Source: Bacillus sp. NTK071
Lineage (GTDB): Bacteria; Bacillota; Bacilli; Bacillales; Guptibacillaceae
Direction of reading: 5' to 3'
Assembly: GCF_017303315.1 (NCBI RefSeq)
Contig: NZ_JAFKOI010000002.1
Coordinates: 131,396 to 155,395 of the forward strand
Length of the DNA stretch: 24,000 nt
Shown: positions 10,401 through 21,812 of the stretch, in pieces
How the letters are laid out: every line of letters starts with the position of its first letter
Numbering within the stretch: position 1 is the stretch's first letter
Program-made: the position numbers and the translations under genes
The notes under the pieces: model-generated
Database searches by the model: none
What the model was told of the DNA's origin: nothing
The model's input: only the letters and a program-made list of their open reading frames with translations

Positions 10401-10447
10401 AGAAAGAAGCGGTTTCCATAAACATTCGGAAACCGCTTCTTTCTTTT
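10401..10447. terminator. Strong bidirectional terminator
   Basis: A 17-bp perfect stem (agaaagaagcggtttcc / ggaaaccgcttctttct) with a 10-nt loop and T-rich flanks. It lies between the RND pump stop (10395) and the last gene of the eight-gene operon (10463). Confidence 0.82.
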
Positions 10448-10462
10448 CTATACTTAATAAAG

Positions 10463-11554
10463 CTACAATTCGGTTGTTTTATACTTCTCCATAAAACGCC
10501 TATCAATTTTATTCTTCAATTTCCACGATAGACGATGATGGAGTGTGACTTTCCCATATAAAAGCAAGCCTTTCTTTTCACCTGTTGAAAGTATTGATAA
10601 ATAAGCTCTCTTAGGTTGAAACCGAACACCATCTTTTTCTTGTAAGAAAGCTTTAATATTCTCCCAGAGTACTTCTGATTGCTTAACTGCTACAACACCT
10701 GCTTTTGGAAGATCAGGATAATCACGTATCGTTGCACAATCTCCCGCTGCAAATATTGCAGGATACTCTTTCACCTGTAATGTATCTTCAACAAGTAAGT
10801 AACCAGCTTCATCAATTGGCAATTTAGAAGCTCTGAACAACTCAGGTGCTTTTGGTCCAGTTAACCATAGTAATTGATCATAAGATATTTCATTGCCAAT
10901 AGAAGTTATGACACTATTTGTAGTTACATTCGCTACTTTTTCTTTCAAATATAATTGCATCTCTTGGCTTCTTGCAATTTGTTCTATTTTCGATTGTGCT
11001 TTTAAAGAAGATGACTGTAGGAGAGTAGAGTGCGAAACTAATGTAACAGCTTTCTTACCTTCCTTTTTCCTCCTAGCAGTTAGTGAAAGGGCAATTTCAA
11101 TACCTGCTGCTCCCCCTCCTACAACTACGGGGTTTTTAGCTTCCCACATCTTTTTGGCCACTTCTTCAATGCGATAATTTGGCTTAATACGTAGCGCATG
11201 ACTCCTAGCGCCTGGTACATCAATCCCTGCTGTATATGAACCTATATCCACAGAAAGAAGATCATAAGAAAGTACATCCCCTTTTTCGGTTAGTACTACC
11301 TTACCTTTTGCATCAATCGATAATGCAGCACCATTTATAAAGGTTATTCTTGCGAGATCGGCGAGTGAAGGCAGATGAACACGCATGTCTTCTTCACTGT
11401 ATACACCTTCCATATAACCTGAGAACATCCCGGAATAATATTGATAGTCTGAAGGAGAAACAATCGTTACTTCGATATCAAGTTGTTCTTCCTGGAATTT
11501 CTTCATAATATGAAGATGGGCATGTCCTGCTCCAATTAACAATAGCTTCTTCAT
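10463..11554 (-). CDS. FAD/NAD(P)-dependent oxidoreductase, NDH-2/SQR fold (two-dinucleotide-binding-domain flavoprotein)
   Basis: 363 aa. It has two Rossmann motifs (LLLIGAGHAHL at the N-terminus, VVVGGGAAGIE mid-protein) plus the FAAGDC FAD motif. No redox Cys pair is visible. RBS is AAGAGGAA. It starts 18 nt after the preceding gene. Confidence 0.85.
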   Translation of the reverse strand: MKKLLLIGAGHAHLHIMKKFQEEQLDIEVTIVSPSDYQYYSGMFSGYMEGVYSEEDMRVHLPSLADLARITFINGAALSIDAKGKVVLTEKGDVLSYDLLSVDIGSYTAGIDVPGARSHALRIKPNYRIEEVAKKMWEAKNPVVVGGGAAGIEIALSLTARRKKEGKKAVTLVSHSTLLQSSSLKAQSKIEQIARSQEMQLYLKEKVANVTTNSVITSIGNEISYDQLLWLTGPKAPELFRASKLPIDEAGYLLVEDTLQVKEYPAIFAAGDCATIRDYPDLPKAGVVAVKQSEVLWENIKAFLQEKDGVRFQPKRAYLSILSTGEKKGLLLYGKVTLHHRLSWKLKNKIDRRFMEKYKTTEL

Positions 11555-11572
11555 TCAAATTCCTCTTTTCAA

Positions 11573-13000
11573 TTACCTAACCCATTTAATATATTTCTCA
11601 GATACCTTAGGTAACCACCCATCAAATAGTTTTTCTCTCCAATACATATCTGCTGCTTGATTTAGAATGGCACCCTTGGTTGGATAGGGATGAATTACGG
11701 TCGATATATCACCAATCTTATGTCCATGTTCTTTTGCAAATACAATTTCTTGCATCCAGCTACCAGAGTCTTCCCCAACAGCATGAGCGCCAAGAATATG
11801 ACCTTTCTTATCAGTAATGACTTTAACAAGACCATCCTTTTTACGCTCAGCAATGAAACGATCTACGTCATCCGTTCCAACTTTAAATACGCGTATATCT
11901 TCTCCATGCTTTTCCTTAGCTTCTTGTTCTGTTAAACCAAGATGAAAAACTTCAGGTTCCGTATAAGTAACCCAAGGAACGTTATCATAATTAACTTTTC
12001 TTTTCAAACCAAAGACTGCGTTTTGGACGATCAATTTCCCTTCCATTCCAGCTCCGTGAGTGAATGGGAAAGCACCGTTTACATCTCCTATAGCATAGAT
12101 ATGAGATCGACTTGTCTGAAGAGATTCATTAACAGTAATATATCCTTCGCTTTCATCGACACCTGCCGCATCTAGATTAAGCTTATCTGTATTTGGTTTT
12201 CTTCCTGTCGACATCATAATAGCATCTGATTCAATCGTTTTTTCTTCTCCGTTCACTTTATAGGTCACTACTTTAAGGCCATTTTGCTCAGAGATCCTTA
12301 TTACATCAGCTTCGAAAACGAAGGTAAGCTCTTTCTCAAGTGCTCTTGTTACAATTGGAATGATCTCATGATCTTCTTTTTTGAAAATCGATTCAGACGT
12401 TTCTAGTATAGTCACATCTGATCCAAACCTTGATAGTGATTGAGCAAGTTCAAGACCAACTGGTCCTCCTCCTATGAAAACAACACTTTTTGGAAGATGA
12501 TCGAGATTAAAGATCGTTTCATTCGTAATGAAGGATACGTTTTCTACTCCATCTATTGGAGGAACATTAGGGCTAGAGCCAGTTGAAAGCACTATGCGCT
12601 TCCCTGTAATAGGATTTTCATCATTAACCGTAACCGTATGTTCATCTTTAAATGCGCCTTTACCCCTATAAATATCGACACCTAGCTTTTCAAACCGTTC
12701 ATCACTATCAATTTCTTGAATTTCATCAATAGCTTCCTTTACACGCTCGATCGCCCGCTCAAACAGAACATCTCCACTAACAGTTAGGCCGAACTCAGCG
12801 GCGCCTTTATAGACAGCATGTACTTCCTTAGCAGAAGTAATAAAGGCCTTAGAAGGCACACATCCGAAATGCAAACAATCCCCTCCGAGTCCAGGCTGGT
12901 CATCAATTAATGCTACCTTTGCACCCATACTTGCTGCACCAGATGCTGCAGTTAATCCGCCCGAACCTCCACCAATAACGATCAAGTCATATTCTTGCAT
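11573..13000 (-). CDS. Class I pyridine nucleotide-disulfide oxidoreductase (Lpd/MerA/GR-like, substrate unknown)
   Basis: 475 aa. Motifs are GGGSGG FAD binding, the redox-active disulfide GGDCLHFGCVPSK, a second GxGxxG (FIGGGPVGLE), AIGDV, and a C-terminal dimerisation-domain His in HPYPT. RBS is GAGGAGA. Confidence 0.88.
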   Translation of the reverse strand: MQEYDLIVIGGGSGGLTAASGAASMGAKVALIDDQPGLGGDCLHFGCVPSKAFITSAKEVHAVYKGAAEFGLTVSGDVLFERAIERVKEAIDEIQEIDSDERFEKLGVDIYRGKGAFKDEHTVTVNDENPITGKRIVLSTGSSPNVPPIDGVENVSFITNETIFNLDHLPKSVVFIGGGPVGLELAQSLSRFGSDVTILETSESIFKKEDHEIIPIVTRALEKELTFVFEADVIRISEQNGLKVVTYKVNGEEKTIESDAIMMSTGRKPNTDKLNLDAAGVDESEGYITVNESLQTSRSHIYAIGDVNGAFPFTHGAGMEGKLIVQNAVFGLKRKVNYDNVPWVTYTEPEVFHLGLTEQEAKEKHGEDIRVFKVGTDDVDRFIAERKKDGLVKVITDKKGHILGAHAVGEDSGSWMQEIVFAKEHGHKIGDISTVIHPYPTKGAILNQAADMYWREKLFDGWLPKVSEKYIKWVR

Positions 13001-13015
13001 ACTTTGTCATCTCCT

Positions 13016-13597
13016 CTATTCTAATATCCGTTTTGCTTCAGCTAGCCGCTGGAAAGCTGTAAAAAGTTCAATTACTAAAAAAATTAGCGTTAGTATTGTT
13101 AGAACATCATGAAAGATAATCATTGCCGTAAACAATATAAATCCTTCTGTACGCTCCGCCACTCCTGCTTGGTAATAGAAGGATTTAATTCCTTTCTTGT
13201 CAGACACCGCTCCAACAGTCAAAAATATGGTCATTGCAAAAATGATAGAAGTGCTTAATAGCAGTAGTGCCCACATCGAGCTTGGAAAACGAAAAGCTAG
13301 ACCCAGGATAACGCTAACTTCCACTACTCGATCAAAGCTTACATCTAGTATAGTCCCAAAGGAAGAAGGCTTGGTCTTTCTGGCCATTGTCCCGTCAACA
13401 GCATCAAGAAAACCTGAAAGCCACAGCACAACAATCGCCAGCACAAATTGATCTATATAAATGAACAAACCAGAAGAAACGCCTATAATGAATGAAATAA
13501 TTGTGACCTGGTTTGCACTAAGTCCAACCCGTAACAACACGTCCGCTGTACGATCCATTATGGGCTGAACATATTTTCTAGCATGTGTATCGAGCAA
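13016..13597 (-). CDS. CDP-alcohol phosphatidyltransferase family protein, short form (YnjF-like)
   Basis: 193 aa with a TTG start (13597) and AAGGATGGTG upstream. The complete family motif D-x2-D-G-x2-A-R-x7-G-x3-D-x3-D is visible in FLDAVDGTMARKTKPSSFGTILDVSFDRVVE. About 5-6 TM helices. MLDTHARKY... and KSFYYQAGVAERTEG resemble my recollection of E. coli YnjF. Confidence 0.88.
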   Translation of the reverse strand: MLDTHARKYVQPIMDRTADVLLRVGLSANQVTIISFIIGVSSGLFIYIDQFVLAIVVLWLSGFLDAVDGTMARKTKPSSFGTILDVSFDRVVEVSVILGLAFRFPSSMWALLLLSTSIIFAMTIFLTVGAVSDKKGIKSFYYQAGVAERTEGFILFTAMIIFHDVLTILTLIFLVIELFTAFQRLAEAKRILE

Positions 13598-13614
13598 GAA
13601 AGCACCATCCTTTC

Positions 13615-14271
13615 CTATTTAAATTCTTCTTCAATCATTGATCCAAAAACTTTCTTACGGATATATAAACTGGCTAGCAATAACAACAATAAGACAGCTG
13701 CTGCAATCATAATGGTTACTAAATTATTTGATAGAAAAGTAGCACCTAAGAAATTTAAAGCAAGAGCCCCCGGAAGCATGCCAAGTAACGTTGCCATATA
13801 GTATTTCCGACGATTTACGGAAGAAACCCCACACACGTAGCTCACAAGGTCAAAGTGGAGAAATGGGACTAATCTCAAAAGAAGTACATAAACGAACCCA
13901 TTCTCTGAAAGTCGTTGTTCGAGTGATTCACCGCGCCTACGCCATGATTTTGGAAGAATTTGGAGTCCTAATTTTCTAGCTAATGAAAAGAATAAGAGTG
14001 CGCCCGTTGATCCTCCAATTACGACCAGTAACGTACCTAAATAAGGACCAAAAACCAATCCACCTGCAATAGAGAGAATTGAAGTAGGGAAAAGTACGAA
14101 GGGTCTAACTATACAGATCAGAAGGAAAACAAGAGGCGCATAGAACCCAAACGATGAAATCCATCCACGAATGGCGGAAGGACGAAAGTCAAAAACATAC
14201 TGATTTAAAAAATAAATAATAAAAAGAACGGCTGTTAAGGATAATCCTTTTAAAAAAGTTCTGATTGTCAT
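13615..14271 (-). CDS. TVP38/TMEM64 family membrane protein (DedA superfamily, SNARE-associated domain)
   Basis: 218 aa, polytopic. It has the characteristic re-entrant-loop region FPTSILSIAGGLVFGPYLGTLLVVIGGSTGALLFFSLARKLG and a later LRLVP.LHFDLVSYVCG. Its ATG overlaps the ABC ATPase stop (ATGA at 14268-14271). Confidence 0.88.
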   Translation of the reverse strand: MTIRTFLKGLSLTAVLFIIYFLNQYVFDFRPSAIRGWISSFGFYAPLVFLLICIVRPFVLFPTSILSIAGGLVFGPYLGTLLVVIGGSTGALLFFSLARKLGLQILPKSWRRRGESLEQRLSENGFVYVLLLRLVPFLHFDLVSYVCGVSSVNRRKYYMATLLGMLPGALALNFLGATFLSNNLVTIMIAAAVLLLLLLASLYIRKKVFGSMIEEEFK

Positions 14272-15263
14272 TGAATTTGTCTCCGATGCTCTTCGTTATA
14301 GACATACTTTCTTATAGTCCCTCTATCAGCTATTAAATAGACGCTTTCTCCTTGATGGAATTTAGTTCTAGAAGGCACAAGAACCGTACCTTTGTCCCAG
14401 GAAACTCGATAGCATGGTATATTATTCTTAATCGTAACAGCAGTAACTTTACCAGGAATTGAAATAACGTTAGGTTCTATCAGGTCATTCTCATTAACCG
14501 CACTCAATTCGTTAAGAGGTATAAAACCTTCCTCCAAAGCTAAGCCCTCCCCAATAATCATTGCACTTTCGATGCTTGAGGGCTTTGTAACGACTTCATA
14601 CGGAAGACCAATTTGGATGAACGAACCTTTGTCCATCACAGCAAGTCGATCAGCCATCTCGATCGCTTCATCTCGATCATGGGTGATGAATAACGATGAA
14701 ATATTCTCCTGTCTTAACAACTCCCTCACTTCTCCTCTAAGGGATTCCCGCAAGGTTGCATCTAGGGAACTAAATGGTTCATCAAGAAGAAGCAGATCAG
14801 GTTTAAGTACCAGTGCTCTGGCTAGAGATACCCGTTGTTTTTGACCACCAGAAAGTTCATGCGGATAAACATTCTTCCACCTAGTTAACTTCACTTTTTC
14901 AAGCATTTCTTCGGCCTGACTGATACGATCTTTTTTTGATGTTTTTTTTCTTTTCAATCCATATGTCACATTTTCAATTACTGTTAGATGTGGAAATAGC
15001 AAGGCATCCTGAAACATGAGAACAATCGATCGGTCTTCTGGTTTTACTTTAGCAAGTGATTTTCCATTTAGTATGACATCACCACCATCGATTGCCTCTA
15101 AACCAGCCAGGCATCTAAGAAGTGTAGTTTTGCCGCAACCCGAGGGTCCGACAACAGTAAAATGCTCTCCTTTTCCCAAAGAAAATGTGACATCTTTAAG
15201 GATAGAAGTTTGCGAATAATTTTTCTTAAGTGTGTTACATTGCAATAGCTGGTTCAAAACCAT
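14268..15263 (-). CDS. ABC transporter ATP-binding protein (importer type, C-terminal OB/TOBE-like extension)
   Basis: 331 aa. Motifs are Walker A GPSGCGKT, Q-loop, signature LSGGQKQR, Walker B LLLLDEPFS and H-loop ITHD. A C-terminal domain of about 95 aa is typical of PotA/CysA/YnjD-type importers. Confidence 0.93.
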   Translation of the reverse strand: MVLNQLLQCNTLKKNYSQTSILKDVTFSLGKGEHFTVVGPSGCGKTTLLRCLAGLEAIDGGDVILNGKSLAKVKPEDRSIVLMFQDALLFPHLTVIENVTYGLKRKKTSKKDRISQAEEMLEKVKLTRWKNVYPHELSGGQKQRVSLARALVLKPDLLLLDEPFSSLDATLRESLRGEVRELLRQENISSLFITHDRDEAIEMADRLAVMDKGSFIQIGLPYEVVTKPSSIESAMIIGEGLALEEGFIPLNELSAVNENDLIEPNVISIPGKVTAVTIKNNIPCYRVSWDKGTVLVPSRTKFHQGESVYLIADRGTIRKYVYNEEHRRQIQ

Positions 15264-15270
15264 CTTCCTT

Positions 15271-16086
15271 TCAAACGCGATTAACTGCCCGAATTACCAG
15301 CCTTAATAACATTTCTGCTGATCCTATAAATAGAAGTGGCAATAAAGCAAAAATAATTGAAAAACCAGCGATTACCGCTTCATTCGAGCCTGAAAAGTAA
15401 GGATAATATAATAATGGTAAGGTTGTAACTGCTCCTCCTCCAATGATAGCTGTAAGTGCATACTGACCAAGTGATATCACAAATGTAAGTAGCATTAAAC
15501 TTCTTATGCTTGGCAAAAGAAGAGGCAGTGATATAGTTAGAAAACGTATAAATGGTCCCGCACCGAGGACAATGGCTTGTTCTAGGAGACCATTCCCCAA
15601 GCGTTCATAGCCTGCTCTCATTATTCGAATGGCATAAGGTAATGTGGGAATTAAGTGCACCAATACAACACCCGACAATTGATCAGCCAACCCATATTGA
15701 ATTAAAGTAAATTGAAGTCCCATCGCAAGTAGGATACCTGGTATTAGGATAGGAGATAGCAAAAAAGCTTCAATTAGTGATTTCCCTTTAAACGAATATG
15801 TAGATAATGCTCTAGCAGCAGGAATGGCTAATAATAAATTCAATCCCACTACCATCAGCGCTAATTTTATTGTCGTAAAAATGGCTTCAATTAGTGAAGG
15901 GTCGCGAAAAATAATCTTCCACCCCTCTAAACCAAAACCATTTGGGAGTAAATCCGGCCAACGCCACCCAACTGAAAAGCTTTTCACTATAATCGTTAGG
16001 AATGGCAAAATAAATAAAATAATAAATAATAACACAATCATAATGGTTGTCATCTTTTTCTTCCCTATATTTAACGAGTGAAACAT
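15271..16086 (-). CDS. ABC transporter permease (BPD_transp_1 type)
   Basis: 271 aa with about 6 TM helices and an EAA-like loop (LEQAIVLGAGPFIRFLTISLPLL). Its start overlaps the upstream permease stop by 1 nt (TGATG). Confidence 0.9.
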   Translation of the reverse strand: MFHSLNIGKKKMTTIMIVLLFIILFILPFLTIIVKSFSVGWRWPDLLPNGFGLEGWKIIFRDPSLIEAIFTTIKLALMVVGLNLLLAIPAARALSTYSFKGKSLIEAFLLSPILIPGILLAMGLQFTLIQYGLADQLSGVVLVHLIPTLPYAIRIMRAGYERLGNGLLEQAIVLGAGPFIRFLTISLPLLLPSIRSLMLLTFVISLGQYALTAIIGGGAVTTLPLLYYPYFSGSNEAVIAGFSIIFALLPLLFIGSAEMLLRLVIRAVNRV

Positions 16087-16970
16087 CAGCGTACTCTCCC
16101 CTTTAACATTCTCAATCGATGTTTCTGTATAGCTCCAATTGACGAAATCGCTAAAAGAAGAGCCACTATACCAGGAACAATCATGGCGGAAAAAGCTAGT
16201 GGACGTTTACTCCAATCTCCATCATAAAACCATTCATATGCCCGAACTGGCAACATTTCCGGTCTTGTAACGCCCAGTAAATAGGGGACTTCAAAAGCCG
16301 ACGCAACGAAGGCAAATAAAATAACAGCTGTTTCAATAATAATTGGTAGTAGCCATGGCCATTCAACGGTTTTAAAAGCATCCCATTTAGAACCGCCTAG
16401 CGTTCTGACTACTTCCGAAAAGCGATGATCTATTTCGTAATAAACTGGCAAGAGCATTAAAATAACAAATGGTACTTCTTTCCATACATAAGTTAGAATA
16501 ATTCCTATCCCAAATTGTTCTTGTACAACTATAGGAAATTCGATTCTATCCTCTATTATTCCAAAGTAAAAAAGTAGTGAAGAAAGTAATCCACTTTGAG
16601 AGAAAAACAAAAAAACTAAATAACCTGCTACAAAATGTGGAATTAGGATTGGAATCCAGACTAGTATCTTTGCAGATGAGTCCTTAAAAAACTGATACAG
16701 CAGTCTTGTCATTACTAAGCCAATCGCTAAAGCAAGAAACGTAGCGATCGTTGTAACACGTATTGTTAACAAGATAGAGTCGAAGAAAAGTTGATTATGA
16801 AACAAGTTTACGTATGAATCAGCTGTCCAACTGCCATCAATTGCCTGGAAACTCTGGGCAACAGCAGACCACATCCCATAACCTACAAGTAAGAGAATGG
16901 CCATCACCGCAGGTAGCAGATAAATCCCTGCCCTCCATTTATTTTTCAATAACCTGATTTGCCCATTCAT
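16086..16970 (-). CDS. ABC transporter permease (BPD_transp_1 type)
   Basis: 294 aa with 6 TM helices and an EAA-like loop (SEVVRTLGGSKWDAFKTVEWPWLLP). The ATG at 16970 overlaps the 3' end of the binding-protein gene by 32 nt. Confidence 0.9.
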   Translation of the reverse strand: MNGQIRLLKNKWRAGIYLLPAVMAILLLVGYGMWSAVAQSFQAIDGSWTADSYVNLFHNQLFFDSILLTIRVTTIATFLALAIGLVMTRLLYQFFKDSSAKILVWIPILIPHFVAGYLVFLFFSQSGLLSSLLFYFGIIEDRIEFPIVVQEQFGIGIILTYVWKEVPFVILMLLPVYYEIDHRFSEVVRTLGGSKWDAFKTVEWPWLLPIIIETAVILFAFVASAFEVPYLLGVTRPEMLPVRAYEWFYDGDWSKRPLAFSAMIVPGIVALLLAISSIGAIQKHRLRMLKGRVR

Positions 16971-18177
16971 TGTTTATCCACTCCGTATATCCTGTATCTA
17001 AATCTGGAAGCTTGTACTGATTTAAGATTTCTGTTGAAAGCACACTGTCACCTCGATCAAGACTTTTTATCTTGTTTTGGTTTTCTTCACTTAATTTATC
17101 GAAATTTAACACCGTTCCTTCTCCCCACATTTCCGGATCCATTTTCGCAATCTGCGCTTCAGGTGATTCAAGAAAATTGATAACCGTCATCGCACCTTCT
17201 GGATTAGGACTGTTAAATGGAATACTAAGATAGTGCGTATTTGAGATGGAACCGGGTTTTTCAAGAATAAAAGATTTTGTGCTATCAGGGAATGTTCCAT
17301 TAGCGATTAAACTTTCCGCTCTTGCACTATTGAATCCCATTGTCATCCAAACCTCACCCTGACTATATAAAGTATCGAGTTTTGTTAATGACTCGGGATA
17401 AGTTTCCCCGCTCTTCCAGAGGGAAGATTTGATGTCTGTGAGATAATTCCAAACGTAGTCTTCAGCGTTTTTCAGGACTTCTTCATTTACCTCTTTAGCA
17501 AGGATATCAGTATTTTCTGAAGCGCCTTCTACTAGAAGATGCTTGACAAAAGTATTCCCTGTGAAATCCGAAACGTTTGGATAAGTAAATTTGCCTGGAT
17601 GATCGTTAATCCATTGCTTTAATTCTTCAAGATTGTTTGGAGGTGAATCTACTTTGCTTGAATCATAATTAAAAACAAATTGAACATTTCCCCATGGTGC
17701 TTCTAACCCATCAATTTTCGTCCCCTGGTCAAATTTTGCATTCGGATCACTTGAACCGATGTACTCATTGAAATTCGGAAGTTTATTCGTAAAGGAACCG
17801 AATAACATATCACTATTTTTTGCATTTTTGAAGTTTGCTCCATTGATCCAAATAACATCAATCGTTCCTTTATTCTTACCAGCCTTCTTCTCTGTTAATA
17901 ACTTTTGCATAAATTCTTCGGTATTCATGGGGCGACGATTTAATGTAATGTTATATTCTTCTTCTAATCTAGGTGTTGCCCACTCATCGATATATTGGTT
18001 AATCCCCTCATCGCCTCCCCACATAAAAAGATTGACTTCTGTTCCTTCAGCAGATGATTCAATTTCATCCCATTTTTTTGAGAGAATATCTTCATTCTCT
18101 ACCTTGCTCCCGTTATCGTTTCCACAACCAACAATAAGAAGAAGTATCCCCATTAGTAGTAATGATTTCCACTTCAT
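16939..18177 (-). CDS. ABC transporter substrate-binding lipoprotein, YnjB-like (COG4134-type)
   Basis: From track ORF 16939-18216. The preferred start is ATG 18177 (MKWKSLLLMGILLLIVGCGND), with GGGGGA 6 nt upstream. It has a lipoprotein signal peptide with lipobox IVGC. The mature part has VNLFMWGGDEGINQYIDEW, IDVIWINGANF and GLEAPWGNVQFVF, which match the pattern I recall for E. coli YnjB. Confidence 0.88.
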   Translation of the reverse strand: MKWKSLLLMGILLLIVGCGNDNGSKVENEDILSKKWDEIESSAEGTEVNLFMWGGDEGINQYIDEWATPRLEEEYNITLNRRPMNTEEFMQKLLTEKKAGKNKGTIDVIWINGANFKNAKNSDMLFGSFTNKLPNFNEYIGSSDPNAKFDQGTKIDGLEAPWGNVQFVFNYDSSKVDSPPNNLEELKQWINDHPGKFTYPNVSDFTGNTFVKHLLVEGASENTDILAKEVNEEVLKNAEDYVWNYLTDIKSSLWKSGETYPESLTKLDTLYSQGEVWMTMGFNSARAESLIANGTFPDSTKSFILEKPGSISNTHYLSIPFNSPNPEGAMTVINFLESPEAQIAKMDPEMWGEGTVLNFDKLSEENQNKIKSLDRGDSVLSTEILNQYKLPDLDTGYTEWINNEWANQVIEK

Positions 18178-18344
18178 TTCGTATCCCCCTTTTCCTTTAT
18201 CGTAGCAATCAACCATCTAAGTTACGAACTTTATTGTGCTTTGTTTACTCATTTACTTATGTATACGCATCTCATTCTAAGTATACCTTTTTTACTATGA
18301 CTATGCTGTAATGCAACTTACAAGTAAATCTTCATAAATCATAC

Positions 18345-18378
18345 AAAAAGCAATAGCCACTATGGCTATTGCTTTATC
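18345..18378 (-). terminator. Rho-independent terminator of the surface-protein gene
   Basis: A 10-bp perfect stem (gcaatagcca / tggctattgc) with a 3-nt loop. On the minus strand it is followed by TTTTTGTATG. It insulates the downstream ABC operon. Confidence 0.75.
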
Positions 18379-18422
18379 AAAAAGTGGGCATTATATTATA
18401 CCACTATAGCTGTTTATCACTC

Positions 18423-19805
18423 TTAGTTCTTTTGCACTTTTCTACGTACTACCACGCCTGTAGCTGCCATCGTTGCAAGTACAGCTGCAAGAATCCACTC
18501 AATTGGCATCTGTTGATCTGCTGTACCACCCATACCTGTTTTCGGCATATCAGTTGGCATTGCTTCCATCGCAAATTTGTCTGGGAATTGATTTACAAAA
18601 GCACCAGATAGTCCTTTTGCAGGTTTATACATATGAGCATATGCTTCACGTACGGAATTATATGCAGCATCATAATCTTCTGTTGTGTAGCTATCAAATG
18701 CAGTAATCAATTGATTTACGTGCATTTGCAATCCTTCAGATAATGCCCCCGCTTCCAATCGTCCTTCTGTTGCTGTTTCAAGGAAGCTTGAGAAATCAGC
18801 TCGGTAAGCTTCAAGAGCTTCAAGCGCTTTTTCTTTAGCTGCTTCGTCTTCAGAACCTGTAGCTTGAACATATTCTACGAAGTTACCAATGTGTCCAGAC
18901 CACATTTCTTTAAATTGATTTCCTGCTTCTTCACCATAAACAGAAGCAATTGCTGCTGCTAGATCATCAGTGTTTTCACTTAGTGCAGCTGCAGAAGCAT
19001 CGAAATCTTCAGTTCCATCAATACCATTTTGCATTGTCATCATAGCAAGACCAGCATGTTCAGATAGAAGATGCCCTAGCCCTGCACGAAGGTCAGAAGC
19101 TGGAGTTACTGCTTTAGTGTTATTGAATTTATCAGGGAATTGATCCGTAATAGCGCTTGAGAAACCTTTTGCTACCATGTGCATATGACCAATAGCTTCA
19201 CGTTCTTTCTCATATGCCATTTCATAATCTCCGGCAACATAGCTATCAAATGATCCGATTAATTGATTAATATGTCCTTGTAAACCTTTTGCTAGCGTTT
19301 CCGCTTCAAGGCGCTTGCCAGTTGCGTTCTCAATGAACTTAGAAAAATCTTCTTTGTAGCCTTCTAAGTTATCAAGCGCTTTTTGCTTCGCATCTTCATC
19401 ATTGTTGCCTGTAGCTTTAACATAGTCTACGAAAAAGCCAATGTGATTACTCCAAATTTCGTTAAATTGAGCTCCCGCTTCTTCTCCATAAACAGAAGTA
19501 ATTGCTGCAGAAAGATCTTCTGTATTTTCATTTAGGGCTCCAGCAGAAGCTTCGAAATCCGCAGCTCCTTCAGCACCCTTTCTCATTGTTTCTACTGCAA
19601 GATATGCATGTTCACTCAGTAGATGACCAAGATCTGCACGAAGATCAGCAGCAGGCGTTTCAACTGTTGGCTTGTCCATATGATCACCATGACCATCTGC
19701 AAAAGCACCTGATGTTGGGATTAATAGTGAAAAACTAATTGGCACTATTAGAAGTCCTTTTTTCCAGTCTATAACTTTCTTCTTCATATTCTTTTCGGTT
19801 CTCAT
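18423..19805 (-). CDS. Secreted, sortase-anchored cell-wall protein with two tandem His-rich helical repeats
   Basis: From track ORF 18423-19862. The preferred start is ATG 19805 (MRTEKNMKKKVIDWKKGLLIVPISFSLLIPTSGAFADG), downstream of AAGGGGAG. It has a signal peptide, two repeats of 178 aa, and a C-terminal sorting signal: MPKTG, a hydrophobic stretch (WILAAVLATMAATGVVV), then the basic tail RRKVQKN. Confidence 0.85.
   Translation of the reverse strand: MRTEKNMKKKVIDWKKGLLIVPISFSLLIPTSGAFADGHGDHMDKPTVETPAADLRADLGHLLSEHAYLAVETMRKGAEGAADFEASAGALNENTEDLSAAITSVYGEEAGAQFNEIWSNHIGFFVDYVKATGNNDEDAKQKALDNLEGYKEDFSKFIENATGKRLEAETLAKGLQGHINQLIGSFDSYVAGDYEMAYEKEREAIGHMHMVAKGFSSAITDQFPDKFNNTKAVTPASDLRAGLGHLLSEHAGLAMMTMQNGIDGTEDFDASAAALSENTDDLAAAIASVYGEEAGNQFKEMWSGHIGNFVEYVQATGSEDEAAKEKALEALEAYRADFSSFLETATEGRLEAGALSEGLQMHVNQLITAFDSYTTEDYDAAYNSVREAYAHMYKPAKGLSGAFVNQFPDKFAMEAMPTDMPKTGMGGTADQQMPIEWILAAVLATMAATGVVVRRKVQKN
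18534..18548 (-). other. Sortase recognition pentapeptide variant MPKTG
   Basis: The complement of acctgttttcggcat is ATGCCGAAAACAGGT, which encodes M-P-K-T-G. It is followed by a hydrophobic segment of about 20 aa and RRKVQKN. Confidence 0.7.
18573..19106 (-). repeat. Intragenic repeat 2 of the surface protein (178 codons)
   Basis: TPASDLRAGLGHLLSEHAGLA...FVNQFPDKF. Same length and register as repeat 1, offset by 184 codons. Confidence 0.85.
19125..19658 (-). repeat. Intragenic repeat 1 of the surface protein (178 codons)
   Basis: TPAADLRADLGHLLSEHAYLA...ITDQFPDKF. My manual gapless alignment to repeat 2 gives about 114/178 identical residues. Confidence 0.85.
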
Positions 19806-19856
19806 CTTCAAATCCACTCCCCTTGTTTTGTTTTTACACTTAGCTAACGAAAGGAA

Positions 19857-19875
19857 GATCATTTTGGATCATTTT
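19857..19875. repeat. Direct repeat GATCATTTT-G-GATCATTTT upstream of the surface-protein gene
   Basis: Two exact 9-mers with 10-bp periodicity, 52-70 nt upstream of the ATG at 19805. Each contains a GATC site. A regulatory role is only an inference. Confidence 0.4.
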
Positions 19876-20014: not shown

Positions 20015-20494
20015 TTAAAAAGAGTTATGTAAATCGAGTTCTTTTTCCATGCTAATAAAGGGGTACGTTCCACCGTTTGTATGCTGGATAAATGTTTTCG
20101 TACGAATAAATCCAGCTTTTTGATAAACTTTAATTGCTCTCTTATTGAATTCAGCAACAGCCATGGTAAGTGAACTTGGTTGATATAAATCAATTGCTTT
20201 TTGAATACCTGCCGTCAAGAAATCCAATCCATTTCCTTGACCTACCATTTGAGGATTCATACCAAGGCCAATTTCAACTTGATTTACTTCATGTTCATTA
20301 AAGCAAAAAAATCCTATGAGCCCACCATTCTGATAGACGCTCCAATAATTTTCATTTCCAGCTGCAACGTCCCGGAATTCTCTCAAATCTTCCATATCTG
20401 CTTGCATATCATAGAATGCATAAATTCCATCATATTCCCACGCAATCACTTGCTCCACTTCTTCTTGATTCATGATATTAAAATGATAGTTCAT
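20015..20494 (-). CDS. GNAT-family N-acetyltransferase
   Basis: From track ORF 20015-20512. The preferred start is ATG 20494 (MNYHFNIMNQEE...), with AGAGGGAG upstream. The acetyl-CoA motif region is MVGQGNGLDFL, plus NKRAIKVYQKAGF. Confidence 0.87.
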   Translation of the reverse strand: MNYHFNIMNQEEVEQVIAWEYDGIYAFYDMQADMEDLREFRDVAAGNENYWSVYQNGGLIGFFCFNEHEVNQVEIGLGMNPQMVGQGNGLDFLTAGIQKAIDLYQPSSLTMAVAEFNKRAIKVYQKAGFIRTKTFIQHTNGGTYPFISMEKELDLHNSF

Positions 20495-20530
20495 TAAACT
20501 CCCTCTTTCCAATTACGATTTAGTAAACTT

Positions 20531-20563
20531 GAAAAGCCCCATGCCGGGATAAGCATGGGGCTC
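20531..20563 (-). terminator. Rho-independent terminator after the GNAT gene at 20697-21128
   Basis: A 10-bp GC-rich stem (agccccatgc / gcatggggct) with an 8-nt loop. The minus strand then reads TTTTCAAGTTT. Confidence 0.7.
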
Positions 20564-20696
20564 ACAATTTATATTTTAAGGGGGACAGGAACCGGGGAAG
20601 TTCCTGTGAAAATAGTGTACCAAGAACCATGTTCATTTAGGCTAATTATGAGTTGTTTTTCACATTGTTTTAATAAATGAAAAGAATAGTAAACAA

Positions 20697-21128
20697 CTAT
20701 TTATATACCATTATCGTTTGTAGTTCTTTGAAGCCAATATCTTTATAAATATACTTAGCGAAATTTGATGAATAAACATTTAAGCGAATTTCATCATATC
20801 CTTGTTCCTTAAAATTCGCTATGCTTGCCTCAACAAGCTTTTTTGAAAATCCTTTACCTCTAAATTTGGGAAACACAAACACATCATAAATAAAACCATG
20901 CTTATTTTCTGTGAAATAATCTGTGTTTTCACCTAACAACACCCAGCCTGCAATTTCATCCCCATCTCGGTAAATAAGATGATATCCACCGCGATCAAGA
21001 ATAGATGAGACAATTTGAAGTGCTTTCTCTTCCTTTACAATGCCAGGATTCGTCGTTCCTTCATTAACTGACTGAATGGAATTGGATAGAATATAATCCC
21101 TTTCCTCTATATTTGCTCGCTCAATCAC
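20697..21128 (-). CDS. GNAT-family N-acetyltransferase
   Basis: 143 aa, with a GTG start 7 nt after GGAGGGG. Motif A is VFPKFRGKGFSKKLV, and the C-terminal region is NFAKYIYKDIGF. Confidence 0.87.
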   Translation of the reverse strand: MIERANIEERDYILSNSIQSVNEGTTNPGIVKEEKALQIVSSILDRGGYHLIYRDGDEIAGWVLLGENTDYFTENKHGFIYDVFVFPKFRGKGFSKKLVEASIANFKEQGYDEIRLNVYSSNFAKYIYKDIGFKELQTIMVYK

Positions 21129-21248
21129 GCATTGTCCCCTCCATCAACTTTATATTTCATTATCCGTTACTTCTTGATGATTGATGGTCTTTCCTTCTTA
21201 TTATGAATAATGGATAAATCCACCAATTTCTTGCAGTATAGTAAAGCA

Positions 21249-21812
21249 TTATTTATTAATTTTTGCATATACACATGTATCAATTAATTCTTTTCCATCA
21301 ATAGACATGCCATCCTTTCGAAGGATAGCTTCGAGATCAAAATTTACTCGCTCTGCTACTTTACGACTTCGGAGATTATTCGTGTTACAACGTATCTCAA
21401 CTCTCTTTGCATTAAGTTGATCAAATGCAAAATCTGAAATGCCTTGTACTGCTTCAGTCATAAATCCATACCCGGAATATCTGGTATCCATCCAGTAACC
21501 AATTTCAAATTTACGAACATTCCAATCGATGCGATGAAGCCCTGAAGAACCTATAAATTCACCAGAAGCTTTATGAAAAAGAAGAAGTCTTAAATCTGTT
21601 CTTTTTAAAAAGTCAGCATGCGATTCTCGTATATTTGCTTCAACATCGTCTAGCGTCTGCTCTGAACGAGCAAATGGCATCCATGGTTTCAACTCTTCAA
21701 TAGAGGCCTGAATAGACTGGTGAACTGCCTTACCGTCACCAGGCATTGGATACCGAATATGTAAGCGATCTGTTTCAAATTCAAATGGGAAATCAATAAG
21801 AATCGGTTTCAT
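21249..21812 (-). CDS. GNAT-family N-acetyltransferase, RimJ/RimL (Acetyltransf_3) type
   Basis: 187 aa. Typical RimJ/L layout: TDRLHIRYP near the N-terminus, EIGYWMDTRYSGYGFMTEA, and NLRSRKVAERVNF. RBS is GGAGGAAG. Confidence 0.9.
   Translation of the reverse strand: MKPILIDFPFEFETDRLHIRYPMPGDGKAVHQSIQASIEELKPWMPFARSEQTLDDVEANIRESHADFLKRTDLRLLLFHKASGEFIGSSGLHRIDWNVRKFEIGYWMDTRYSGYGFMTEAVQGISDFAFDQLNAKRVEIRCNTNNLRSRKVAERVNFDLEAILRKDGMSIDGKELIDTCVYAKINK

Follow-up and report, generated by a model that had tools for sequence, protein, structure and literature searches.

Organization of the locus

The DNA analysed here is a 24,000-nucleotide stretch of the genome of Bacillus sp. NTK071 (contig NZ_JAFKOI010000002.1, positions 131,396 to 155,395; hereafter the window), in which eight adjacent minus-strand genes encode an ATP-binding cassette (ABC) importer, a TVP38/DedA membrane protein, a YnjF-family CDP-alcohol phosphatidyltransferase, and two flavoproteins. 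From the 5' end of the cluster, the genes encode a YnjB-type substrate-binding lipoprotein (16939–18177; 412 amino acids, aa), permease 1 (16086–16970; 294 aa) and permease 2 (15271–16086; 271 aa) of the importer, both matching PF00528 BPD_transp_1, the importer ATPase (14268–15263; 331 aa; PF00005, 123 bits), a TVP38/DedA membrane protein with a VTT domain (13615–14271; 218 aa; PF09335, 85 bits), the transferase (13016–13597; 193 aa, TTG start; PF01066), a MerA-like class-I flavoprotein disulfide reductase (11573–13000; 475 aa), and an NDH-2/FSP1-like flavoprotein of the TIGR03169 type (10463–11554; 363 aa). A first-pass annotation made from the letters of the sequence had listed these eight open reading frames (ORFs), and each was recovered at the same position; the gene junctions recomputed from the coordinates, −32, −1, +7, −4, +17, +15, and +18 nt, also agreed. 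The longest ORF of the first gene begins at 18216, but the start at 18177 is preferred because it is preceded by a strong ribosome-binding site, AAAGGAAAAGGGGG, yields a product (MKWKS...LLLIVGCGN) with the lipoprotein lipobox LIVGC, and agrees with the N-termini of homologues.

The two hairpins that had been described as bracketing the cluster were confirmed by stem, folding energy (dG), and z-score. The downstream one (10401–10444, minus strand; 18-bp stem, dG −28.8 kcal/mol, z −8.1) lies between the last gene of the cluster and a convergent AcrB-like gene and is a terminator common to both. The upstream one (18345–18378, minus strand; 13-bp stem followed by UUUUUGU, dG −17.7, z −3.95) belongs to the preceding gene (18423–19862) and is predicted to shield the cluster from read-through of that gene. 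A hairpin scan also bore out the absence of internal terminators, returning a single weak 5-bp match on the minus strand within the cluster. Because the genes are tightly spaced and no internal terminator is seen, one transcript covering all eight genes is plausible.

Conservation of the module

Loci for comparison were collected by a genome scan with one genome per species, which gave 441 stretches with a gene for a transferase relative. The best 80 of these 441, from at least 20 Bacillales genera, and three loci fetched earlier made up a census of 83 loci that was searched with the eight proteins of the window; the scan kept the loci closest to the seed sequence and was hence restricted to Bacillales. 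VTT-domain proteins were present in 79 of the 83 loci, MerA-like reductases in 75, binding proteins in 74, the two permeases in 74 and 73, ATPases in 73, and NDH-2-like flavoproteins in 62. About two dozen gene orders occurred, some of them due to contig ends. In the commonest order, found in 32 loci of Planococcaceae, the importer, DedA, and reductase genes are divergent from a pair formed by the transferase and NDH-2-like genes. The set is mostly split into two or three units, and the fully co-directional order of the window was found in three loci. The single eight-gene operon of the first-pass annotation therefore stands as a plausible arrangement for the window but not as the general layout. 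Since co-location persists through many gene rearrangements, the eight genes are very probably functionally coupled.

The earlier suggestion of a conserved module made up of the importer, the TVP38/DedA protein, the YnjF-like transferase, and redox proteins was upheld, as their co-occurrence is far above background and extends to four phyla. Like E. coli, 74 of the 83 Bacillales loci have the YnjBCD, TVP38/DedA, and YnjF families together, as do clusters in Clostridia, Fusobacteriota, and Gammaproteobacteria. All eight functions are present in Carnobacterium (Lactobacillales), where the permease is a fused protein. In Acetoanaerobium (Clostridia), the importer and transferase genes are accompanied by YdjY-like, YdjZ-like, and VTT genes, and in Cetobacterium and Ilyobacter, both Fusobacteriota, VTT and transferase genes occur with those of the importer. 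Catenovulum (Gammaproteobacteria) combines a VTT::reductase fusion with DUF547, homologues of YnjB, YnjC, and YnjD, a transferase resembling YnjF, and a fatty-acid hydroxylase. The core families are also clustered on a Metabacillus plasmid, and one or both flavoproteins are absent from some of the non-Bacillales or plasmid clusters.

Several gene fusions join members of the set. The Catenovulum VTT::reductase fusion lies inside a full cluster. A fusion of the transferase to the binding protein through a hydrophobic linker was observed once; the linker would place the binding domain outside the cell, which is topologically sensible. In Ilyobacter polytropus, a 515-aa protein (L174:3276–4823) carries two rhodanese domains fused to a VTT/DedA domain. 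Its gene stands between the importer genes and the gene of an 864-aa flavoprotein with Fer4_20, Pyr_redox_2, and CCG domains, and no description of this rhodanese::VTT fusion type was met in the literature searched.

With a distant subgroup of the transferase (30–40% identity) as seed, a metagenome scan provided 46 loci of at least 3 kb. Within 4 kb of the transferase gene, VTT genes were found in 31 of the 46 loci and MerA-like genes in 21, and the commonest cassette was reductase-DedA-transferase. The YnjB-type importer proteins had no match in any of these 46 loci, so the importer is an add-on of some lineages, and the widest core consists of the transferase, DedA, and MerA-like reductase. 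One distant locus, a single observation, has a pair of phosphotransferase system (PTS) genes, IIB and EIIC-GAT, in the place of the importer. The PTS hands over its cargo in phosphorylated form, and a cargo delivered in this way fits an acceptor of the phosphatidylinositol-phosphate synthase (PIPS) kind. The YebC, GNAT, and PrfB genes repeatedly met next to the distant loci were rejected as partners because they represent housekeeping synteny of one lineage, and queA, purB, proS, and ppiD were likewise set aside. In Legionella pneumophila, the conjugative plasmid CP021280 (61,867–65,418) encodes a YiiX-like C92 enzyme, TVP38, reductase, transferase, DUF547, and AhpD-like proteins beside a Tn3-family transposase and two DUF692/DNA-binding-domain gene pairs, evidence that the module can be mobile.

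Parallel with the E. coli ydj/ynj genes

The E. coli gene order given in the first-pass annotation, ydjX-ydjY-ydjZ-ynjA-ynjB-ynjC-ynjD-ynjE with a convergent ynjF (b1750–b1758), is correct. Like the window, this uncharacterised locus encodes a YnjB-type protein, a YnjC/YnjD importer, TVP38/DedA proteins, a YnjF transferase, and thiol/sulfur-redox accessories, and the shared proteins are 29–37% identical. In BLASTP comparisons, the identity was 32% for YnjB, 37% for YnjD, and 29% for YnjF (E 2e-20), and both permeases of the window matched YnjC. The two loci differ in their accessories, which in E. coli are the YdjY lipoprotein (C-x2-C-x3-C-P), AhpD-like YnjA, and the rhodanese YnjE, annotated as a molybdopterin synthase sulfurtransferase, and in the window are the two flavoproteins. 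E. coli further has two TVP38/DedA proteins, a single fused permease, and a separate, convergent ynjF, whereas the window has one DedA protein and split permeases.

The E. coli ydj/ynj operon is activated by FNR (PMC3688515). It is also reported that the ynjC mutation P213S raises the fitness of E. coli under colistin, an effect that was left unexplained (PMC9184624). A 2025 paper lists ynjE-ynjF among the convergent gene pairs with overlapping transcripts, or excludons (PMC12288877); in E. coli, expression of the transferase would then exclude that of the rhodanese and vice versa. In E. coli K-12 (1,840,783–1,848,008), selD (b1764) lies 5.6 kb from ynjF (b1758), with nudG, ynjH, gdhA, ynjI, and topB between them. 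This nearness is notable in that the last gene of the window resembles a family found fused to SelD; it is probably a coincidence.

CDP-alcohol transferase and DedA protein

The transferase is the most conserved member of the set, with 65–75% identity across Bacillales genera vs. 35–55% for its neighbours. It matches PF01066 at 47.2 bits (cut-off 22), and the catalytic motif D-x2-D-G-x2-A-R-x7-8-G-x3-D-x3-D is intact. Across 38 diverse homologues, D65, D68, G69, A72, G81, D85, D89, E151, and R184 are invariant; R73 is present in the motif, the residues of which are invariant or nearly so, and K138, Y142, and E151 are near-invariant residues of the family's own. Profile searches against the PDB identified the M. 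tuberculosis PIP synthase PgsA1 (6h53) as the best solved relative, with a full-length match (E 3e-22), and further matches to DIPPS and to PIPS 5d92; DIPPS 4mnd was fourth-listed (E 6e-20). Six helices, a length of about 200 aa, and the catalytic motif are shared with PgsA1 and archaetidylinositol-phosphate synthase. The scores against the curated models of phosphatidylinositol-phosphate synthase (73.2 vs. 170 bits) and archaetidylinositol-phosphate synthase (97.0 vs. 180 bits) are both below the cut-off. Canonical enzymes were rejected by larger shortfalls, with 36 vs. 240 bits for ClsA, 21 vs. 107 for pssA, and 16.7 vs. 440 for Pcs, and no PgsA model was among the matches.

In PgsA1, the acceptor pocket is lined by R94, R152, R155, R195, and K135; R155 and R195 hold a sulfate that stands in for the phosphate of inositol phosphate, R94 lies nearby, and R94 is conserved among the enzymes that use inositol phosphate (PMC6506517). 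In an alignment that is uncertain in the loop, R90, R149, and R184 of the window transferase correspond to R94, R152, and R195 and are kept in the family, whereas R155 aligns with a glycine (G152). Because the arginines in or beside the phosphate pocket of PIP synthases are conserved, the acceptor is probably an alcohol with an anionic or phosphate group, not necessarily inositol phosphate; no inositol-phosphate synthase is linked. Lineages may differ in their acceptor, as R155 is replaced by glycine here and E. coli YnjF has no counterparts of R90 and R149. Neither a domain nor a gene for a cytidylyltransferase was linked to the transferase in the window, the 83 Bacillales loci, or the distant loci. 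This negative result, together with the closest similarity being to PIP synthases that use CDP-diacylglycerol, makes it unlikely that the imported compound is used in a CDP-activated form, as had been proposed.

The DedA protein matches VTT_dom (PF09335) at 85.2 bits against a gathering score of 33.9. Its closest E. coli paralogues within the ydj/ynj locus are YdjX (32% identity by BLASTP) and YdjZ (30%). PetA, a DedA protein encoded with the phosphatidylethanolamine (PE) biosynthetic genes pssA and psd, is required for PE to reach the outer leaflet, and fusions of DedA to CDP-alcohol transferases exist (PMC10193950). By analogy with PetA, UptA, and the eukaryotic VTT scramblases TMEM41B and VMP1 (PMC10193950), the DedA protein of the window may act as a lipid flippase or scramblase. 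The commonest fusion of COG0398 DedA proteins is to a pyridine nucleotide-disulfide oxidoreductase (PF07992/PF02852), a fusion that has been tied to aerobic metabolism only (PMC10127716).

ABC importer

All parts of a type I binding-protein-dependent ABC importer are adjacent in the window: a binding protein with a lipobox, two BPD_transp_1 permeases, and one ABC_tran ATPase. The binding protein was confirmed to be of the YnjB type rather than PotD, AfuA, or PhnS, as residues 10–408 match NF008633/PRK11622, the YnjB subfamily, at 436.4 bits (cut-off 203). PotD identity was rejected on the equivalog score (17.6 bits vs. a cut-off of 582), and a 19-member profile matched PotD in the PDB with an E value of 3e-4 across 70 residues. 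The ThiB/TbpA thiamine type was rejected as well: TbpA 2qry gave an E value of 0.09 across 30 residues, and no thiamine pyrophosphate (TPP) riboswitch, the usual control element of such importers in Bacilli, is present. An Rfam search of the window, the 168-nt leader, and seven related loci found no TPP or other riboswitch, the weak matches being the terminator hairpin itself, and the label of a thiamine transporter is disfavoured for this reason.

The AF2 model of the binding protein has a pLDDT of 89.4, and Foldseek assigned it a generic cluster-D fold, equally like amine, phosphonate, iron, and sugar-phosphate binding proteins at 10–18% identity. PhnS (aminoethylphosphonate), AfuA (sugar phosphate), and FbpA/FutA (iron) were rejected at query-normalised TM scores of 0.48–0.64, and the protein is about 90 residues longer than any of these. 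As PotD is missed and the fold match is only generic, the binding protein represents a distinct family without a solved structure. Permease 1 aligns with the N-terminal half of E. coli YnjC and permease 2 with its C-terminal half, and the two are fused in Carnobacterium and Proteobacteria. The ATPase has a C-terminal extension of about 90 aa past the nucleotide-binding domain, and every named NCBIfam equivalog falls below its cut-off.

Flavoproteins and the variable redox slot

The first flavoprotein has a Pyr_redox_2 domain (214 bits), a Pyr_redox_dim dimerisation domain, and a CxxxxC disulfide motif (CLHFGC), and its best solved relative is MerA (5x1y, 277 bits). Among 43 members of the family, CxxxxC is invariant, as is the tyrosine of a PYP motif at the position of the catalytic histidine of glutathione reductase (GR) and lipoamide dehydrogenase (Lpd). 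When aligned by hand with the motifs of GR and MerA, the motif HPYPTKGA has tyrosine at the histidine position and alanine at the glutamate position. Mercury reductase was rejected, because none of the 43 members has a C-terminal cysteine pair, the NmerA domain is missing, and TIGR02053 is matched at 367 vs. 454 bits. Lipoamide dehydrogenase (359 vs. 409 bits) and GR (295 vs. 480) were rejected for missed cut-offs and replaced acid-base residues. The models of RclA and HOSCN reductase gave 217 vs. 740 and 256 vs. 650 bits. The enzyme is thus classified from its sequence as having a MerA-like active site, yet it is not a mercury reductase. The C-terminal tail of the family is basic and amphipathic, which suggests peripheral membrane binding. 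In Planococcaceae, the reductase has a C-terminal DUF1499 domain and a total length of 630 aa (e.g., L010:7927–9816); these loci also contain an ArsR-type regulator, a low-molecular-weight phosphatase/ArsC-like gene, and a 431-aa flavoprotein ending in Cys-Cys.

The best solved relatives of the second flavoprotein are S. aureus NDH-2 (5na1) and FSP1, with partial matches of only E 1e-14. It matches TIGR03169, a family described as N-terminal to SelD, over its full length at 294.1 bits, just below the cut-off of 310; it has a single cysteine (GDCA) and carries no SelD fusion. The NDH-2-like protein is an accessory of Bacilli, being present in the 62 Bacillales loci counted above and in Carnobacterium, with no match in the distant loci.

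The proposal of a variable thiol/sulfur-redox slot gained strength from the comparison, as different redox proteins occupy the slot in different lineages, including MerA-like, NDH-2-like, AhpD-like, rhodanese, Hdr-like CCG flavoprotein, C_GCAxxG_C_C, glutaredoxin-like, OsmC, DUF547, and exported MsrA/MsrB proteins. Nine distant loci, between them showing at least five arrangements, and the Metabacillus plasmid encode exported MsrA and/or MsrB, in every case with a signal peptide. Exported DUF547 (CxxxxC) and AhpD-like CxxC proteins occur in some loci, and rhodaneses, free or fused to VTT, stand beside the core in Ilyobacter and in locus L086. Among the 83 Bacillales loci, 12 contain glutaredoxin-like, eight OsmC, and 20 Crp/Fnr regulator genes; a fatty-acid hydroxylase and a YiiX-type C92 enzyme adjoin the core in some loci. 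The accessory redox proteins of other versions of the module (Msr, DUF547, AhpD-like, rhodanese, and others) are not encoded inside the window.

A tblastn search with E. coli SelD found no homologue in the window and 171 related loci (2.26 Mb in total). The earlier idea that the compound may contain selenium consequently finds little support, its basis being the resemblance of the last gene to TIGR03169. DedA was reportedly connected to selenite sensitivity by Ledgham and co-workers in 2005.

Regulatory signals and flanking genes

A consensus scan gave a weak sigma-70-like promoter match, TAGTCA-18-TAGAAT, at 18274–18303 on the minus strand, about 97 nt 5' of the first gene; it agrees with the consensus at nine of 12 positions and is no more than a match to a pattern. 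In the minus-strand leader (18240–18285), two copies of the palindromic hexamer GTATAC lie around this match, separated by 17 nt, and the pair could be an operator. No FNR/Crp box with up to two mismatches was found upstream of the operon (18178–18420). In the whole window, the FNR/Crp pattern with at most two mismatches had 48 matches vs. a shuffle mean of 31, above every shuffle. A perfect 14-bp palindrome that fits the FNR/Crp-type consensus, TTGATATAAATCAA, lies at 20180–20193 inside a GNAT ORF (20015–20512).

The flanks of the cluster are unrelated to it and encode an AcrB-type pump, PadR, a HesB-like protein, three GNAT acetyltransferases, and a surface protein. The three GNAT genes are consecutive, all on the minus strand (20015–21812), directly upstream of the surface-protein gene (18423–19862, minus strand). 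The latter encodes a 479-aa protein with a signal peptide, no significant Pfam match (best DUF7832, E 0.007), and two internal repeats of about 190 aa each (…DLRA.LGHLLSEHA…SVYGEEAG.QF…). Its C-terminus, MPKTG followed by a hydrophobic stretch and a basic tail, resembles a sortase-anchoring signal, and the product is probably a cell-wall-anchored surface protein.

Proposed function of the module

Homology and gene context point, tentatively and at less than even confidence, to a module that synthesises a non-canonical phospholipid, flips it across the membrane, and keeps it reduced. In this scheme, the YnjB-type lipoprotein, the two permeases, and the ATPase would bring a polar precursor of the head group into the cell. 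The YnjF-family enzyme would move the phosphatidyl group from CDP-diacylglycerol to a hydroxyl of the precursor at the cytoplasmic face, a step proposed because the catalytic motif is intact and two arginines of the phosphate pocket are conserved. The TVP38/DedA protein could equilibrate the product between the leaflets, by analogy with PetA of pssA-petA-psd and the eukaryotic VTT scramblases. The gene context suggests that the MerA-like reductase draws on NAD(P)H by way of the CxxxxC disulfide to maintain a sulfur group, be it on the head group, the precursor, or a partner, in the reduced state; its amphipathic tail probably tethers the enzyme to the membrane, and in other species the enzyme is fused to DedA. 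A second and possibly quinone-linked redox input may, again judging from gene context, come from the NDH-2-like flavoprotein in Bacilli. The outward-facing product would serve thiol-redox or oxidative-damage functions of the envelope, and the same core is linked in other lineages to exported MsrA/MsrB, DUF547 (CxxxxC), or a YdjY lipoprotein.

A more specific version of this scheme, which we regard as distinctly improbable, is a lipid shuttle that carries reducing power across the membrane. The YnjF-type enzyme would make a phospholipid with a thiol or other redox-active head group, and DedA would flip the reduced form out and the oxidised form back, to be re-reduced with NAD(P)H by the reductase at the cytoplasmic face. 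The lipid would then feed the exported MsrA/MsrB, DUF547 (CxxxxC), or YdjY proteins. If true, the shuttle would be a route independent of DsbD/CcdA and would give a role to COG0398 DedA proteins and to E. coli YnjF.

Several observations weigh against the phospholipid scheme. Each of its mechanistic steps rests on homology and gene context, and the transferase scores under the curated cut-offs of every named synthase. PgsA1 R155 is matched by G152 in the uncertain loop alignment, and residues equivalent to R90 and R149 are missing from E. coli YnjF. In its most widespread form the module has no importer, so the imported cargo need not be the head group. A DedA protein fused to a rhodanese or a reductase could equally be a small-molecule transporter, and the tyrosine that replaces the acid-base histidine of the reductase, as in MerA, fits a metal or soft electrophile as well as a disulfide. 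In addition, the census loci come from related genomes, so that the raw counts overstate the independent events, and 32 of the 83 represent one Planococcaceae arrangement.

Alternative explanations

It is conceivable, if unlikely, that the module serves uptake and reductive processing of a sulfur or selenium compound such as thiosulfate, polysulfide, selenite, or an organic disulfide, which would enter through the ABC importer and/or DedA and be reduced by the flavoproteins here and by rhodanese or AhpD-like proteins elsewhere, with the transferase being secondary or unrelated. The rhodanese::VTT fusion and the free rhodaneses beside the core in Ilyobacter and L086 agree with such a role, as do the rhodanese YnjE of E. 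coli, the 294-bit match between the last gene and TIGR03169, known from fusions to SelD, the reported connection of DedA with selenite sensitivity, and the location of E. coli selD 5.6 kb from ynjF. However, five unrelated genes separate selD from ynjF, SelD is missing from the 2.26 Mb searched, and the fold of the binding protein belongs to the amine/phosphonate/iron/sugar-phosphate group and not to the sulfate/thiosulfate-binding proteins. The transferase, moreover, is the most conserved member and the one with which the others travel. This last point also bears on a role in envelope defence against oxidants or metals, which appears decidedly unlikely: the MerA-like enzyme would work as RclA, Har, or MerA by directly reducing HOSCN, HOCl products, Cu(II), or a soft electrophile, while DedA and the transferase remodel lipids under stress and the importer brings a protectant. 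Such a role leaves the conserved transferase as the anchor, and its fusion to the binding protein, unexplained. MerA, HOSCN reductase, and RclA are indeed the closest solved or curated relatives, all below cut-off, and the tyrosine in place of the catalytic histidine is shared with MerA; still, the scores fall far under the RclA and HOSCN-reductase cut-offs, and the enzyme, with no C-terminal cysteine pair or NmerA domain, is not a mercury reductase. The OsmC, glutaredoxin-like, MsrA/MsrB, and AhpD-like neighbours in relatives would suit a defence function, and so would the Legionella version on a conjugative plasmid beside a Tn3-family transposase, which resembles an accessory resistance trait.

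Automatic annotation suggests a plain polyamine or thiamine importer beside unrelated genes, and some sources name the binding protein a [quoted passage not shown], in line with its weak profile match to PotD in the PDB (E 3e-4, 70 residues). This explanation is very improbable given the PotD equivalog score, the thiamine-binding protein match of only E 0.09, the absence of TPP and other riboswitches from the window and seven relatives, the linkage of the importer genes to the transferase and DedA across four phyla, and the transferase::binding-protein fusion. Hardly any probability is assigned, too, to the synthesis of a soluble phosphodiester compatible solute instead of a lipid in the manner of DIPP synthase. 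The fourth-listed solved relative is DIPPS 4mnd, and many of the host genera are marine or halotolerant, but the DIPPS family model is matched at 44 vs. 580 bits, the cytidylyltransferase needed for a CDP-alcohol donor is not linked, and the constant partner of the transferase is DedA, of a family implicated in lipid transport.

Comparison with known systems

For the transfer and flipping steps of the phospholipid scheme, pssA-petA(ybfM)-psd of B. subtilis is a working model, as it likewise combines a CDP-alcohol phosphatidyltransferase and a DedA protein in one locus (PMC10193950). Unlike the window, it has no importer and no flavoproteins. PetA belongs to the UptA-type DedA clade (PMC10193950), whereas the DedA protein of the window resembles YdjX/YdjZ, and the transferase is PIPS-like, not PssA-like, as seen from the pssA score given above. 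The PIP synthases are alike in the equivalents of R94, R152, and R195 and unlike in R155 and in the scores below cut-off. The reductase shares with the MerA/RclA/HOSCN-reductase group the fold, CxxxxC, dimerisation domain, and tyrosine for the catalytic histidine, and differs in having no C-terminal cysteine pair or NmerA, in the missed cut-offs, and in its basic amphipathic tail. A similar logic is found in the Pcs pathway, in which a binding-protein-dependent ABC importer takes up choline from outside and the synthase joins it directly to CDP-diacylglycerol. To our knowledge, the importer and synthase genes of the Pcs pathway are not clustered. In contrast to the module, the Pcs pathway has no DedA and no redox partners, and the Pcs model scores far below its cut-off. 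Fusions of COG0398 DedA to PF07992/PF02852 show the same pairing as the Catenovulum fusion within a full cluster (PMC10127716); the available part of that paper makes no tie to a CDP-alcohol transferase, a YnjBCD importer, or exported Msr.

Searches of open-access papers and preprints, a scope that gives no proof of absence, found no functional study of the module, YnjF, YnjBCD, or the MerA-like partner. Three elements are already known, namely the pairing of DedA with PF07992/PF02852 (PMC10127716), the pairing of DedA with a CDP-alcohol transferase (PMC10193950), and the E. coli operon (PMC3688515); within the same literature, no paper joins the three or defines the module. What appears to be new is the extension of the pairing of a head-group synthase and a DedA flippase by an importer and redox enzymes.

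Significance

DedA/TVP38 proteins are nearly universal, and members of the YdjX/YdjZ type are without an assigned role in the literature searched. The E. coli genes ydjX, ydjZ, ynjB, ynjC, ynjD, and ynjF, which have long been without a role, are placed here in one module that occurs in four bacterial phyla, with a PIP-synthase-like enzyme as its anchor and DedA and a disulfide-reductase-type flavoprotein as its constant partners. The function of YdjX/YdjZ-type DedA proteins thereby becomes directly testable through the lipid, the imported ligand, and the substrate of the reductase. The colistin phenotype of ynjC hints at a relevance to envelope-targeting antibiotics. If the module does make a new phospholipid, bacterial membrane lipids would gain a head group, and if the product is redox-active, it would represent a new supply of reductant to the cell envelope.

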